DNA of 64,000 bases from Bryobacterales bacterium (GTDB lineage Bacteria > Acidobacteriota > Terriglobia > Bryobacterales > UBA6623): contig CBDFIW010000002.1 in NCBI GenBank assembly GCA_965248255.1, positions 276,162 through 340,161 of the forward strand. Reading direction: 5' to 3'. A program made the position numbers and the translations under genes. The notes under the pieces were generated by a model. It saw only the letters and a list, made by a program, of their open reading frames with translations. It was not told the origin of the DNA and searched no databases. Of the stretch, positions 23,996-59,201 are shown piece after piece. Numbering within the stretch: position 1 is the stretch's first letter; each line of letters starts with the position of its first letter.

Positions 23996-26032
23996 TTGAC
24001 ACCGCACTCAATCCCATGCCCTTCCGGCACACACGCACCACGACCCTCCGCCGCCCCGCGGTTCACGAATAACGGTCCGGCCTTTCATCTGTGTTCATCT
24101 GTGGTTCCTTCCTCCCCCCACTCCTCCAACTTCCGCCGCACCTTGCCGGCGTTGGGGTCTTCGATCTGCTCGTAGATCGCCAGCGCGTCTCGGGCGCGAT
24201 CGGTAGAACCTGCTCGAAGTACTCGATCGCCCGCCGCGTCTCCCCCAACTGCAAGTAGGCGCCGCCCAGGTTGCCCAGCGCCCTCCCTTCCCCATCTTTG
24301 TTGCCCAGCTTGCGGGCGGCCTTCAGCGAGCCTTCCAGCCAACGGACGCGTTCGCGCGGATGCAGGCGCAGTTCGAGCACGTAAGGGGCTACTCCGCGAA
24401 AGCCCTGTGCCAACGTGGCCGCGCGATCGTCCGAGGACGCCTGCTCCGCCGCCCAGGCCTGCCCCGTCTCGATGTGCGCCCGCTCGCGGTCGAACAAACG
24501 CAACCCTTCTAGCACACCCTCACCGCCTTTCTCGTAGGTGTCGTCGGCTTTTGAAGCGACCCTCAGGAAATGGACGGCATGCCGTCCGGCCGCGCCGTAA
24601 GCCTCTTCTTCACTCCGGCCCTTTCGGGCCAGGTCGCGCATCAGGTCGTGCAGCCGGAAGCGCTCGTCCTTAGCGTCATAGAGCACGAGGCTGCGGCCCA
24701 CCAACGTATCCAACTCCCCGTCCTTGAACTCCCCCACCGCCTCGGCCGCCGCCCTGTTGAACGGTGCTGGAAACACCGCCAGCGATCGCCAGCGCGCCAC
24801 CAGTTCCGGGGCGTCGCGTTCCAGCGCCTCGACGCTGTCGTCCAGCACAGCCATCGCGTCGCGTCCTTCAAAGTGCAGCTCCGAGCGCTTCCCTTCCACG
24901 CGCTTCAGGTAGTCACCCACCGCCAGCGCGGGCGACGCGGCCAGCCGGTTGCCCGCCACCCGCAGCGCCAGCGGCAGATCGCCGCATAGCTCGGCCAGAC
25001 TGTCGAGCTGGCCGTCTTCGGCGGGCTTGTCGCCGAGGATCGCTCGCAACAGTGCTACCGACTCGGGCCGCAGTAACTCGTCGAGGTCGACTCGCTTGAT
25101 GCCACCAAGCTGCACCGTCTGCCGCGAAGTGACCAGCAGCGCCGAGGGCGGCTTCGGCACGAGCGGCCTCACCTGCTCGCTGTCACGGGCGTTGTCGGCC
25201 AGCACCAGCACCGCCCGCTCGGCCAGCAGCCCATGGTAGAGCCCGGCGATCTGCTCGGGCTGGTCGGGCAACTTCTGCTCGGGCTCGACGGCCAGGATCA
25301 CGTTGGCCATGGCCTGCCCCGGCGCAAGCGGCTCGGCCTCGAGCCCGCGCAGGTTCACCAGCACCTGCCCGCCGGGATACAGTTCGCGCACCTCCCGCGC
25401 CACGTAGTACGCCAGCTCGGTCTTGCCGACGCCGCCCTGTCCGCCGATGGCGGTGATCCCCGCGCCCTGGCGGTTGCGCAGCCGCGCGATGAGTTGATCG
25501 GCCTGGCTCGTGCGGCCGGTGAAGTCCGCCACGGGGTCCGGCAGTTGAGGGACGATACGGGCCGTAGCGGCGGCTACTGCGGGCTGGGTCGCCACCGAAG
25601 GTCCGGGACCGAACTGCGGTGTTGATCCGGGGTGAAAATGTGCTTCCTGAATAAAGGTCATCCCCGTTGAGTCTCGGGCGTCGACGTTTGCGATAAGCCC
25701 CTGCTGCTGCCAGTAATTCTGAATCGTCGCTTCTGCCCTCGCTTGCTCAAGCAGCGCTGCTATCTCTTTGGCGAGGTGTGGGTCCGCAGCCAACAACTGT
25801 TGCAGGGGTGCGGTCAGCGCCGGGGCCGAGGGCTTTCCGTCCGCTTGTTCGGCGCTCTCTTCCAGCGCCTTGCCCCCGGGCCTCCCGCGTAGCTTGTCCC
25901 GGAGCTGTTTGCCAAACTCGACAACCTTCTCCGCCCCTTTATCCGCAGCCTTGTCGGCCACTTTGGAATGGACCCGAAAAGCGAGACCAGTAGAGAAGGG
26001 ACAATGAACCAGGGAACGGTAAGGAGGTTCGA

Positions 26033-26419
26033 TTGTCTCGAAGACGATTCACGAAGGAGTTCAAGCTGGCGGCCGTCCGGCGGCTCGAAGCCGGCGAGTC
26101 CGGCTCGGCTCTCGCGCGCGAGCTGGAGGTGAAGCGCGAAAAGCTCTACGACTGGCTGGCACAAGTCGAGCGCTACGGCGTCGAGGGAGCCTTTCCCGGC
26201 GCGGGGCGGCGTCCCGGCGGCAGCGCCCGTGTCGAGCCCGGCCACGAAGCCCAGGCCCGCCTCGCGGAGCTGGAACGCAAAATCGGCCGCCAGGCCATGG
26301 AGATTGATTTTTTGTCCGCAGCCTTGCGGCGTGTCGAGGATCTGCGCCGGCCGAGCATCGTCAGTGGAACCGGCGCGTCGCTGAGGAAGTACGGGCCGCA
26401 AGGCGGCAAGGCAACATGA
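26033..26419 (+). CDS. IS3 family transposase OrfA
   Basis: RRRFTKEFKLAAV HTH and LERKIGRQAMEIDFL; RBS AAGGAGG. Confidence 0.9.
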   Translation: MSRRRFTKEFKLAAVRRLEAGESGSALARELEVKREKLYDWLAQVERYGVEGAFPGAGRRPGGSARVEPGHEAQARLAELERKIGRQAMEIDFLSAALRRVEDLRRPSIVSGTGASLRKYGPQGGKAT

Positions 26420-27246
26420 GCACGCTGAGCACGCGCGATTTGTGCCGCTTGAGCGGACTGGCGCGAGCCAGCCTCTACCGCCAGGCCAAACCCGACAGCG
26501 AGCAGGTCGGGGAACTGCGGCAGGCCATTGTCCACGCCGCCTTGGACCATCCGGCCTACGGCACCCGGCGGACGACCCAACAGCTGCGCCGTCAAAAGCT
26601 GCTGGTCAATCGCAAGCGCGTGCAACGGGTGATGCGCGAAGAGAAGCTCTTGCGGCGACGTCGCCGCACCGTTCCGCGAACGACCGATTCGAAGCACTCG
26701 CTGCGGCGTTATGAAAACCTGACGCGCGATTTCCAACCCACGGGTCCCAACAAACTGTGGGGCTCCGATCTCAGCTACGTACGATTGGGAAACCACTTCG
26801 TCTATGTGGCGGTGGTGTTGGACGTGTATTCGCGGCGCGTGGTGGGCTGGGCCGTGGGTCCGAACCTGAAAACCGAATTGCCGCTGGCGGCGCTGCAACA
26901 AGCGTTGAGCAGCCGGCGTCCGGCGCCGGGCTGGATTCATCATTCCGATCAAGGTTCGCAGTACGCCGCGGAAGCTTATGTAGCCACCCTGCGGCAAGCG
27001 GGCGCGAGGATATCGATGAGCCGCAAGGGCTGCCCGCAGGACAACGCGTACGTGGAAAGCTTTTTCAAGACTTTGAAAAGCGAGGAAGTCGACTGCAGCG
27101 AGTATGAAAGTTTGGCCCAGGCGCAGGCCGAGATCGGCGCTTATATTGAGCGGGAATACAATCGTACGCGATTGCATTCGGCGCTGGGCTATCGGCCGCC
27201 GCAAGAGTATGAGCGGCTGTGGGAAGAGGCGGCTAACGCCGCCTGA
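26416..27246 (+). CDS. IS3 family transposase OrfB
   Basis: WGSDLSY, HHSDQGSQY, DNAYVESFFKTLKSE and RLHSALGY; ATGA overlap with orfA. Confidence 0.92.
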   Translation: MSTLSTRDLCRLSGLARASLYRQAKPDSEQVGELRQAIVHAALDHPAYGTRRTTQQLRRQKLLVNRKRVQRVMREEKLLRRRRRTVPRTTDSKHSLRRYENLTRDFQPTGPNKLWGSDLSYVRLGNHFVYVAVVLDVYSRRVVGWAVGPNLKTELPLAALQQALSSRRPAPGWIHHSDQGSQYAAEAYVATLRQAGARISMSRKGCPQDNAYVESFFKTLKSEEVDCSEYESLAQAQAEIGAYIEREYNRTRLHSALGYRPPQEYERLWEEAANAA

Positions 27247-27409
27247 GTTTTCTTAAGGCATGAGCAGATCTATCGATCCGATGGCGCAGCACAAGGCGGG
27301 ATGCGGCCTCAGTAGGCGAGCACCCCGCCCTCATCGTTGCGATGAGTCTGCGGCCGGGTATTCCTTGGTGGGTTGCTCTCCAGCAGAGCCCGCCTCCGCT
27401 TCCCCGGAT
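27244..27409 (-). ncRNA. Candidate IS3-embedded structured RNA, copy A
   Basis: Strong nucleotide conservation with 57479-57638, compensatory stem changes, upstream TAGCCA-17-CATGAT promoter (27444-27416). Confidence 0.6.
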
Positions 27410-27738
27410 GAGTTGATCATGCCCCCATTGGGCTGGATTGGCTATCCTTTTTCAGTCAACCGCGACCCGTCCCTACTTTCTTGGCCTCGCCACAGGGGTC
27501 CACTCCACTTTGTCCCCGAGCTTCTCACCGGCTTTTTGCAACAAGGCCAAGCGTAACCCAGCAACGGGGCGGCGTACTGCGCTAATTGCTCTAATGAAGC
27601 AGGGTCGATCATCGCTTCGCCGAAAAGCCGCCTCCAGTCTATCAGCGGCCCGCAACCAACACAGGCACCACCAAACGAAACCGAGCCCCGAACGCCAGTG
27701 AGGGGTAAATCCACCCATTGCAAGCAGAAACGCACAAC

Positions 27739-45859: not shown

Positions 45860-46150
45860 CACGGCGCAAGGCGATGCCTCCGCGCACGGTTCCTAGCCCC
45901 GGCAGGGGCGTTTGAAAGTAGCCCACCGCGCAAGCGGTGGGTCAACCGTGCCCAACGATCCCCAGCCCCGGCAGGGGCGTTTGAGATTTGTTTTCCTGGC
46001 ACCCGGTGGGTGGGGAACAGGAGAAACACGTAGGCTCTTCGAGGCTCGGCCTGTTGCTGTTGCGGATCGCACAGCGCAACCTGCAGCCTCCTTACGGACG
46101 GATTACGGTCCGCGGGCACAACCCTTCGGTCGCGGGGACTCTTACGCCGG
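45860..46150. repeat. REP-like compound palindromes, family B variant
   Basis: AGCCCCGGCAGGGGCGTTTGA twice and CCCACCGCGCAAGCGGTGGG. Confidence 0.6.
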
Positions 46151-57152: not shown

Positions 57153-57478
57153 AACCGCCTTTCCGGGCCGCGCCTGTGGAGGAGCGGGTTGATGAGGCGG
57201 CAAGCTCGCCGCTGAAACTGATAGGCGCTTAGTTACTGCCTCCACATCGACAGGAATTCTTGACGTGCAGGCGATAAGCGCCCAAAAAGGCGTTCAACAC
57301 AACAGGCACCTAGTCCGCGAAGCGGACGGCGGACAATAGCCCACGGTGGAGCCGCAGGCGGAACCGTGGGTCAAAGAACCTAGCGTGGACCCCAAGGCCG
57401 AGACAAGCAGTTAACCCCGCTTTTGCCATTCGCTGAAAAATCGTTGTCTTGCCAGCCGGCTGGGTGCACAATGGCCCT

Positions 57479-57638
57479 AGCTGGTGAAGCGGAGGCCGGC
57501 TCTGCTGGAGAGCAACCGGCCAAGGAATAGCCAGCCGGAGACTCATCGAAACGATGAGACAGGGGGCGGCCACCTCGCCGCTCCCTGCTTCTGTCCCCCC
57601 ATCGGATCGATAGATCTCCCGATGCCTCAAAAAACTCA
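57479..57638 (+). ncRNA. Candidate IS3-embedded structured RNA, copy B
   Basis: TTGTCT-17-CACAAT promoter (57444-57472) followed by a multi-stem sequence homologous to 27244-27409. Confidence 0.6.
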
Positions 57639-58493
57639 TGCCCCCACCTCCACCGCACCCGCCCCGCGGCGCAGCTGCCGCTCGAATTCCGCCGGCGGCC
57701 GATACCCCAACGCCGAGTGCAGCCGTCGCTGATTGTAGGTCCGCTCCAGGAAGTCACCGATCCGTGCCTGCGCGTCGGCCAGGTCGCGATACTCGCTGCG
57801 ATCCACTTCCTCGCCCTTGAGCGTTCGGAAAAAGCTCTCACGGCGCGCGTTGTCGTAGGGGTTCCCCTTCCGACTCATGCTGATCCGAATCTGATGCTGG
57901 GTGAGCAACTGCGTATAGGCCTGGCTAGCATACTGCACGCCGCGGTCGGAATGATGCACCAGCCCTGGCCGCACCCGCCGCTTCGCCAGCGCCATCTGCA
58001 GCGCCGCCAGCGGCAGCGTGTGATCCAGGCCCGTTCCCAGCTGCCAACCGATCACCCGCCGCGAATAAGCGTCCAGCAACACCGCCAGATAGAGGAACTC
58101 CTCGTTGAACCGGATGTAGGTGAGGTCTCCCACCCACAGCTGATTCACCCCGTCCAGAGCCAGCGTCGGCGCCAGGTTCGGGTACACCGCCAGCCCGTGT
58201 TGCGCATCGCTCGTCACCACAAACTTGCGTTTGAGCCGGCACAACAAGTTCTGTTCCCGCATCTGGCGCTGGACCCGCTTGCGGCTCACTCGCCAACCTT
58301 GTCGCCCGAGCTCTTGGCGGATGCGCCGGCTGCCATGGCTGGGCCATTGCAGCGCCAGCTTGCGGATCTGGCGACGCAGTGGGGGCTCTGGCTCGGCGGG
58401 CTGCGACGCACTCGGTCGGCGGTAAAAACCGGCCCGGCTCAGCCGCGCTAGTTCGCACATCCTCTGCACCGTCAGCTTCGTCGCCCCGCTCAC
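57636..58493 (-). CDS. IS3 family transposase OrfB
   Basis: WVGDLTY, HHSDRGVQY, DNARRESFFRTLKGE and RLHSALGY. Confidence 0.92.
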   Translation of the reverse strand: MSGATKLTVQRMCELARLSRAGFYRRPSASQPAEPEPPLRRQIRKLALQWPSHGSRRIRQELGRQGWRVSRKRVQRQMREQNLLCRLKRKFVVTSDAQHGLAVYPNLAPTLALDGVNQLWVGDLTYIRFNEEFLYLAVLLDAYSRRVIGWQLGTGLDHTLPLAALQMALAKRRVRPGLVHHSDRGVQYASQAYTQLLTQHQIRISMSRKGNPYDNARRESFFRTLKGEEVDRSEYRDLADAQARIGDFLERTYNQRRLHSALGYRPPAEFERQLRRGAGAVEVGA

Positions 58494-58834
58494 TTCCTTC
58501 TCGATCTGTTCGTAGACGTTGCGCCGCCAGGCAGAGCCCGCAGCAGGCGCTGTTCCTCGACACGCTGCCAGGCTCGCTTTAAAAAATCGATCTCCATGGC
58601 CTGCTGGCCGATCTTGCGTTCCAACTCGGCCTCGCGGCCGGGCGGGGGACGCTTTTGGCCCTGGCCGGAGAAGGCGCGCTCACCCTGCGTGCTCAACTCC
58701 CGCCGCCAACGGCGCACATCACTGGGATCCATCTCCAGTGCCCGGGCCACTTCGTTGACCGACTCCCCCGCCTCGATGCGCCGCAGCGCCGTCAACTTGA
58801 ACTCCCTGCTGAACTTCCTACGAGACTTCTTCAT
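58490..58834 (-). CDS. IS3 family transposase OrfA
   Basis: RRKFSREFKL HTH and LERKIGQQAMEIDFLK; GTGA overlap with orfB. Confidence 0.9.
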   Translation of the reverse strand: MKKSRRKFSREFKLTALRRIEAGESVNEVARALEMDPSDVRRWRRELSTQGERAFSGQGQKRPPPGREAELERKIGQQAMEIDFLKRAWQRVEEQRLLRALPGGATSTNRSRRK

Positions 58835-59201
58835 GACTCCAGTTTCTCCTTTCGCTGTACGAAAGGGGTTAACTGGCTGTCTCAAATCCTGGGTCCATTC
58901 CAACCAGTAGAAAGGAGCAGCCCCGGTAGGGGCGTAGGAGGGTTGCCGGAGAACCCTTGGCATCGATTTTTCCTGCGCCCCTTGCGGGGCTTGGGTCCAC
59001 TTCTTCCTGGCTACCCGCGGTTTCGCCCTGACGGGCTTCACCGTGGGCTACTTTCCAGCGCCCCTGCCGGGGCTGAGCCCCTTCGGGGCCATTGAAAAAA
59101 AATGGCTTGCGCAACTTCGACAATTCCTTTTCGATGTGGAGGCGCTAGGCGGCTGGCGGAGGGGTCCCGACGGATGGCCAGGGTGCACATGGCTCTAGGC
59201 A

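Follow-up and report, generated by a model that had tools for sequence, protein, structure and literature searches.

What does an insertion sequence (IS) keep behind its transposase gene, on which strand does it keep it, and as what kind of molecule? We addressed this question for a window of 64,000 nucleotides (nt) from a Bryobacterales bacterium (assembly GCA_965248255.1, contig CBDFIW010000002.1, positions 276,162 to 340,161), in which two diverged IS3-family elements, A and B, carry the same module of ~165 nt, measured from its predicted start to a pseudoknot. In both elements the module stands between the stop codon of the transposase gene orfB and the right inverted repeat and is read on the strand opposed to that gene. 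The analysis described below shows a structured RNA element that is encoded within transposons of several families and whose specific three-dimensional fold is maintained by selection, and we are highly confident that it represents a real structured RNA of this strand.

The module folds into two rods and a pseudoknotted tail

For the comparative analysis, a 30-position degenerate pattern derived from the conserved core was used to search contigs, giving at least 109 stretches in one-genome-per-species contigs and at least 120 in metagenome contigs, with 80 loci analysed from each. In the common fold, domain 1 (D1) is a rod composed of helix P1, a conserved, purine-rich 8×8 internal loop (J1, GAAGCGGA; J2, AAGGAAUA), helix P2, a small bulge and hairpin P3 (UGCU-GGNN-AGCA); domain 2 (D2) is a second rod whose sequence varies (P4–P7), and a single-stranded 3′ tail follows. 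In element A, D1 lies at 27354..27407 (−), with covarying P1 CCGGG/CCCGG and P3 UGCU-GGAG-AGCA (loop 27381-27378). D2 of A, at 27264..27351 (−), consists of P4 GCAGA (27351-27347)/UCUGC (27268-27264), the hairpin CUCAUCG-CAA-CGAUGAG (27346-27330), the variable hairpin P7 (27329-27295) and CAUCGGAUCGAUAGA. The tail of A (27244..27261, −) reads AUGCCU (27261-27256), UA, AGAAAA (27253-27248), CUC (27247-27245; the pseudoknot partner of the P3 loop) and A. In element B the module (57444..57638, +, counted from its promoter-like pair) has D1 at 57480-57535 (P3 loop 57507-57510), D2 at 57537-57619, AUGCCU at 57622-57627, the A-run at 57629-57634 and CUC at 57635-57637. A covariance model of D1 (R1) scored 82.7 bits at A and 93 bits at B.

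An earlier note on this window had regarded the segment as an IS3 tail module with compensatory changes between A and B, and had held that selection acts on RNA structure and not on a peptide. The changes it listed are present in the sequence: the closing stem is CCGGG/CCCGG in A and GCTGG/CCAGC in B, the variable stem is GGCGGGGTGC/GCATCCCGCC in A (27329-27320 / 27304-27295) and CAGGGGGCGGC/GCCGCTCCCTG in B, and the loop of the CTCATCG hairpin is CAA in A and AAA in B. Its view of selection is supported by helix covariation, the loop–tail pseudoknot, a G·A/A·G exchange and frame-breaking indels, and in the deeper alignment the paired positions of both D1 and D2 helices covary above shuffles. 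Its name for the module was too narrow: IS3 elements do bear it, but it also stands beside other transposase families and has the 3′ tail with its pseudoknot as a third part.

In D1 (67 sequences, 16 pairs), 93.0% of cells were paired versus 80.8% in shuffled alignments, and double-change cells numbered 131 versus 35.3, the observed values being reached by 0 of 500 shuffles; as the sequences are kin, such cell counts overstate the number of independent events. When the partner was slid by 1–3 columns as a control, at most 50% remained paired. Several D1 columns were fixed by the degenerate search pattern, so that P2 and P3 pairs that never vary are uninformative; the pseudoknot and G·A/A·G columns were free of the pattern.

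D2 of the acidobacterial type is a long rod. Its helix P4 was paired in 90.6% of cells versus 71.0% after shuffling (0 of 1000 shuffles reached this value), with variants GGAGA/UCUCC, GCAGA/UCUGC, GGAAA/UUUCC, GACAA/UUGUC, CAAGG/CCUUG and others, and the inner pairing of AUCNN with NNGAU reached 82.1% versus 70.0% (again 0 of 1000). The loop bases of the CTCATCG hairpin covary with a distant D2 segment (AUCCA/UGGAU, AUCAA/UUGAU, AUCCG/CGGAU, AUUCC/GGAAU). Two pairings are open to the four D2 segments, a local hairpin (1:2) and a long-range rod (1:4, 2:3), with covariation at 1:4; since the loop bases of the local hairpin pair with the distant segment, the two structures are alternatives. D2 in Bacteroidota and Cloacimonadota is a simpler stem of other sequence, regardless of the neighbouring transposase.

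The tail, recognised in 68/85 modules of the first set (some of the misses being contig ends or failures of the regular expression), consists of AUGCCU, 1–3 bases, the A-run and three bases complementary to positions 2–4 of the P3 tetraloop. By pairing with the tetraloop, these last three bases would form an H-type pseudoknot, with the A-run probably positioned in the P3 groove. The complementarity was kept in all 60 unique sequences of the genome set (GGAG-CUC 40, plus one CUU; GGCG-CGC 6; GGGA-UCC 5; GGGG-CCC 8). In the same 60 sequences, J1 position 3 and J2 position 4 invariably showed one of two combinations, G with A (46 sequences) or A with G (14). Both hypotheses were formed on the genome set and then tested on a metagenome and viral set containing 64 new unique modules, in which the pseudoknot was found in 58/64 as parsed and in 60/64 once the misplaced tails of L207 and L264 were read correctly, and the G·A/A·G rule held in 63/64. 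The four exceptions to the pseudoknot were two tails cut by another IS (L198, L257) and two that pair at 2/3 positions (L218, L244), and an additional loop–tail pair type, GGCA-UGC, appeared in this set. For a pairing of AUGCCU with J2 (AGGAAU), 5/6 positions and one variant (L107) fit, and variation was too low for covariation.

Two departures from the standard arrangement were observed. In L093 (Hydrogenedentota contig), an extra hairpin of ~45 nt stands between P3 and the 3′ strand of P2, the remaining fold and tail being kept. In L077 and L151 (Terriglobia contigs), an inverted D2 3′ segment with tail (TTTTTTCAGGCATGCAGATCTATC) lies directly upstream of a forward D1, downstream of an IS110-family gene; this arrangement is rearranged or nested.

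Reading frames, strand and boundaries

The frame starting MSFLRH in B (MSFLRHREIYRSDGG), which the earlier note had considered broken in A, is indeed interrupted there: the same words (VFLRHEQIYRSDG) lie one base out of register with a stop/ATG, followed by TAG after 22 codons, and the in-register frame of A stops after 6 codons. Reading frames of A itself across the module are broken. A conserved peptide was ruled out by a 1-nt indel in D1, where 19/60 sequences are without one J2 base, and the distance from D1 to the tail falls into all three classes modulo 3 (30/17/17 in the test set), which excludes a conserved frame. Coding was rejected on indels and spacing because the stop-codon test was uninformative in this GC-rich DNA, 57/62 modules having at least one open frame.

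Two asymmetries distinguish the strands. Among D1 pairs, G·U (63) outnumbers A·C (21), one pair alone supplying 29 of the 63, and the proposed RNA strand was more stable than its complement in 103/121 unique modules, by a mean of −6.4 kcal/mol; as the sequences are related, the p-value of this asymmetry is not a probability.

At its 3′ end, the tail of A overlaps the orfB stop codon (27244-27246), and a terminator-like hairpin followed by GAGTTTTCTT closes orfB on the transposase strand (27227..27254, +), its T-run being the complement of the A-run of the RNA. Conservation had been reported to end at the orfB stop codon. A/B identity does collapse right after AAAACTCA, the complement of that codon, but the boundary is the end of the RNA fold and not an effect of the open reading frame (ORF), since the same tail occurs where no stop codon lies. 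On the other side, A/B homology extends past the promoter, at lower identity, to the IS terminus, so that the promoter is not its start. In three Bacteroidota contigs (L088, L091, L114), the C-terminal residues (EFLKA/GFFKA) of a ~210-aa transposase-like protein with a weak Mutator-family match are read from the strand complementary to the RNA tail, so that a single set of bases specifies both a protein C-terminus and the RNA pseudoknot.

A candidate promoter precedes domain 1 at a conserved distance

Promoter-like hexamers had been noted at the same offset in A and B despite unrelated spacers, and both were read in the sequence: in A (27416..27444, −), TAGCCA (27444-27439), a 17-nt spacer, CATGAT (27421-27416) and 13 nt to GAAGCGG, and in B (57444..57472, +), TTGTCT (57444-57449), a 17-nt spacer, CACAAT (57467-57472) and 13 nt to GAAGCGG. 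While the shared placement is upheld, each site is weak alone, at 8/12 consensus positions, and a scan of single sequences at a threshold of 9/12 found no site in the module region of A or B. Among homologues, the −10 hexamer of the best −35/−10 pair starts 21–19 nt before AAGCGG in 48/67 and 52/81 unique upstream regions; because this position is conserved across ~150 homologues, the promoter is more than chance. The placement of the −10 box predicts that the RNA would start at the base of P1.

The Bacteroidetes-type promoter element is TAnnTTTG. A match to this consensus at 5/6 or better within 40 nt upstream was found at 10/10 Bacteroidota-labelled loci versus 2/68 others, and at 8/10 of the Bacteroidota-labelled loci it is located at the −10 box position. 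Judged from these matches, the predicted promoter shifts in type with the host phylum and keeps its place, and an independent transcript from the module's own putative promoter is well supported.

Assembled metatranscriptomes gave a hint of expression: in four runs of one study, D1 was covered by 10–12 Logan contigs with a summed depth of 600–1100 versus 7–30 over orfB, depths that pool many related elements and come without strand, start or end. The RNA of A has a C·A mismatch in P2 (T>C at 27369), which is absent from all 10–12 D1-covering contigs of each run.

As for termination, a terminator after the tail was seen in only 12/52 modules. P7 was rejected as an internal terminator, as only 14/95 have five or more T among the 8 nt that follow (mean T 2.5 versus 2.1 on the other strand). 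In the co-directional modules L093, L098, L107 and L152 and in one of the window's own genome (C1:13259-13421), a conserved hairpin, CCGCCC-GNA-GGGCGG, without a U-run directly follows the tail. The L098 and L109 copies diverge ~35 nt past this hairpin, so that the RNA gene there ends the IS and reads outward.

The module accompanies unrelated transposases in many phyla

In the window's own genome (8.0 Mb, 4 contigs), the covariance model found 62 copies of D1, and the copies belong to at least 5 diverged element types. In samples of the phylum, 13/401 genomes carried the module by BLAST and 12/151 by covariance model, this genome being counted in both. According to record titles, carriers among the pattern matches listed include Acidobacteriota (Terriglobia, Bryobacterales, Pyrinomonadaceae), Bacteroidota, Chlorobiales, Planctomycetota, Cloacimonadota, Hydrogenedentota, Sumerlaeota, Nitrospira, Desulfobulbaceae, Magnetococcales and others. 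Among the 80 genome matches, L102 is a chance match in coding sequence, and of 8 pattern matches in IMG/VR, 5 represent a chance hit to a coding sequence. No match was obtained by blastn of the B module against the plasmids of PLSDB.

Neighbouring transposases of 163 loci (80 + 83) were assigned by Pfam on the nearest ORFs and by tblastn with those proteins; some assignments come from weak matches, and one element supplies several of the loci as its copies; the counts below are therefore of loci and not of events. At 90 loci the transposase converges on the 3′ end of the RNA (IS3 orfB 64, HTH-type 10, IstB 6, Mutator-like 6, other rve 3, IS110 1), at 20 it lies upstream on the same strand (rve 11, IS110 5, IstB 2, IS3-like 2), and at 5 it is divergent upstream (ISL3 4, IS3 1). 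No transposase was found at 48 loci, including the chance match L102; in the second set, 21/26 such loci had little flank, and loci without a transposase despite enough flank numbered 5/83. The module thus adjoins IS3, IS21, IS110, ISL3, Mutator-like and other rve/HTH transposases, at least six families, and by this distribution is portable between IS families.

To our knowledge, insertion sequences have been thought to carry only what mobility needs, and the known IS RNAs (antisense, guide) are private to one family each. The RNA fold described here is common to IS3, IS21, IS110, ISL3, Mutator-like and other elements and is conserved as far as individual tertiary contacts, with a predicted promoter re-fitted to each host; apparently it is a widespread RNA module of insertion sequences that has been undescribed so far. 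A fold shared across IS families and phyla argues for a function that serves transposons generally during their life in the cell and that passes between elements. Such a compact RNA of ~165 nt with a predicted pseudoknot could give a new handle on transposition control in little-studied bacteria.

Comparison with known RNAs

Rfam 15 gave no match at the module in the window, in either tail (E up to 10) or in 18 other loci. In a literature search we found no description of the module; the supplementary motif lists of discovery papers, which might hold it, were outside that search.

RNA-OUT of IS10 is a stably folded antisense RNA encoded by the IS, and the part of the transposase mRNA that it overlaps is the 5′ end with the ribosome-binding site. 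The present module resembles it as a folded RNA with a predicted promoter within the element, opposed to the transposase transcript; it differs in standing at the 3′ end, in occurring also in co-directional orientation and in having no above-chance complementarity to the 5′ end.

The preQ1-I riboswitch is an H-type pseudoknot aptamer with an A-rich 3′ strand in which, as in the module, the last few bases of an A-rich tail pair with a hairpin loop. Unlike that aptamer, the module has a second domain of 60–130 nt before the tail, a tetraloop fully used in pairing, no regulated ORF and no Rfam match.

Guide RNAs of transposons, including the omega RNAs of TnpB and IscB, are bound to one protein family, and their variable loops match target or donor DNA. 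The IS110 bridge RNA and the IS1111 seekRNA are reported to be such transposon guide RNAs (PMC11187229). They share with our module the nature of a structured non-coding RNA (ncRNA) in a non-coding transposon end beside the transposase gene. In contrast to a guide RNA tied to a single family, the module occurs with rve (DDE), IstB (AAA+), DEDD/Transposase_20, ISL3 and Mutator-like genes, and its unpaired regions are near-invariant across elements and do not appear programmable, although no target comparison was made.

In layout, the closest precedent is Ssr9/Asr9 of ISPpu9 (IS110 family, Pseudomonas putida). It is described as a small RNA (sRNA) gene of ~180 nt that follows the transposase gene within the IS, has its own promoter and also exists in orphan copies (PMC8450116); Ssr9 lies on the same strand as tnp, pairs with a second sRNA and helps control transposase expression. 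An apparent promoter of its own, the place between the tnp stop codon and the IS end, and orphan copies are found in our module as well. Compared by description and not by sequence, Ssr9 is known from one IS in one species group, whereas the module spans IS families and phyla, mostly converges on the transposase gene and conserves its tertiary fold. Another transposase-linked motif, MRSC-65-2, is described as a single long stem with UYCCGG repeats (PMC11109978), and it is this single-stem fold that sets it apart.

What the RNA may do

We tentatively favour, short of even confidence, the overall explanation that the module is a promoter-driven structured ncRNA gene of insertion sequences that acts as an IS-end regulatory RNA. 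A more specific mechanism is possible, though on balance doubtful. Under this mechanism, the module's own promoter would drive the RNA on the strand opposed to the transposase gene; where the host is an IS3 element, the RNA would converge on orfB and overlap the orfB stop codon and the terminator T-run, and it would restrain transposase expression through convergent transcription and antisense pairing at the 3′ end. The pseudoknotted core would be the binding site of a conserved ligand or host factor that sets the activity of the RNA. Since the RNA runs towards orfB and covers its stop codon and terminator, a brake on the transposase is the simplest reading, and the invariance of the core suggests control by, or action through, a conserved ligand or host factor.

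Several observations weigh against this regulatory reading. The transposase lies upstream in the same direction at 20/163 loci and is divergent at 5/163. The duplex energy of the RNA with the 5′ 170 nt of the transposase mRNA was no better than that of shuffles (A, −106.3 versus a shuffled mean of −109.1; B, −86.4 versus −98.0). In addition, the promoters of A and B are individually poor, terminators after the tail are scarce, the contig depths are pooled and strandless, kinship inflates the covariation counts, and the ligand or partner of the RNA is hypothetical. The co-directional and divergent loci imply that antisense pairing is not the function common to all copies, and they keep alive as rivals a cargo RNA, a riboswitch-like switch and a self-cleaving ribozyme.

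A trans-acting cargo RNA is unlikely, yet a serious contender. Its core would bind a conserved cellular protein or RNA, as a decoy, a sponge or a component of a ribonucleoprotein, and would help any IS that carries it regardless of orientation, which fits the mixture of 90 convergent, 20 co-directional and 5 divergent loci. The internal loop and tail are near-invariant across phyla, D2 tracks the host lineage and not the IS family, and the putative promoter is fitted to the host; a precedent for an IS-borne sRNA with orphan copies exists in Ssr9 of ISPpu9 (PMC8450116). On the other hand, a recognisable terminator in only 12/52 modules is unusual for a trans-acting sRNA, the partner is hypothetical, and genomes usually hold 1–2 copies, with only 12/151 genomes of the phylum carrying the module at all.

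Of similarly low probability is the view of the module as a plug-in RNA class, exchanged horizontally among unrelated IS families, whose core, either by sensing a conserved signal of the cell or by catalysis, couples transposon activity to the state of the host. If true, this would make the module the first sensor or ribozyme of its kind to be devoted to DNA transposons across phyla.

More improbable is a riboswitch-like sensor, in which a small molecule or ion would bind an aptamer formed by D1 and the tail, and the two exclusive pairings of D2 would act as the switch. The output would be read-through from the IS end, inward as antisense into orfB, or outward across the IS end or circle junction. 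The conservation is aptamer-like, comprising covarying helices, an internal loop with the G·A/A·G exchange and a pseudoknot with an A-rich strand; D2 offers the local hairpin (1:2) against the long-range rod (1:4, 2:3), the local loop bases covarying with segment 4, and no fixed terminator follows the tail. However, the downstream ORFs on the same strand are unrelated or absent (DDE transposase, MCP, esterase, none), an observation that also led us to reject a 5′ leader of a host gene. The pseudoknot partner lies downstream of D2, so that the platform sits within the fold; a U-run after P7 is present in only 14/95, and Rfam holds no related aptamer.

Still more improbable is a ribozyme that would cleave itself and thereby trim transcripts at the IS end. 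It would account for the sharp end of conservation, directly after the pseudoknot strand, and for the scarce terminators, and the core is compact and pseudoknotted with invariant unpaired bases, in a multi-copy element linked to mobile elements in either orientation. Against it, no ribozyme family of Rfam 15 matches, a predicted promoter of its own stands exactly at P1, and cleavage is hypothetical.

Finally, a reading without any RNA function, whether as a DNA-level element (subterminal transposase-binding sites or a cruciform) or as a short peptide gene, is very improbable: CATCG/CGATG words are repeated in D2 near the inverted repeat and stop-free frames are common across the module (at least one in 57/62), but one module accompanies unrelated transposase families, 1-nt indels and spacings in all classes modulo 3 exclude a conserved frame, and the G·U excess, the folding asymmetry of the strands, the non-Watson–Crick G·A/A·G exchange and the 3-bp long-range pseudoknot are signatures of RNA.

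The host elements and other features of the window

Element A (25964..27507, +) has orfA at ~26033-26419 and orfB at 26416-27246 and ends in TGGAA...CTCCA; element B (57381..58902, −), a second, diverged IS3-family IS, has orfB at 57636-58493 and orfA at ~58493-58834. The orfA products of both match HTH_Tnp_1 and the orfB products of both match HTH_21, rve and rve_3 (Pfam), as in IS3 elements with a DDE rve core. Termini 25964/27507 of A were fixed by 43 full-length copies in the same genome (identity 99.5–100%) and termini 57381/58902 of B by 8 full-length copies, and these mapped ends place the RNA module inside the transposon.

The sequence TGGA(A/G)TGGACCC is found at both ends of element A. 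Its 3-bp flanks match in only a few of the 43 copies, so that a target-site duplication is inconsistent across copies; the scarcity of matching flanks may reflect later recombination between copies. Element B is bordered on both sides, at 57324-57353 and 59034-59063, by a 30-nt inverted repeat (80%) that forms a hairpin and resembles a repetitive extragenic palindrome, and a second TGGACCC word occurs ~100 nt outside its left end, near 58999; element B may be lodged within a repeated extragenic element. Elsewhere in the window, the Rfam family Acido-Lenti-1 RNA was matched at 45895-45941 (−) with 41.4 bits (gathering score 37), the sole Rfam match in the window.

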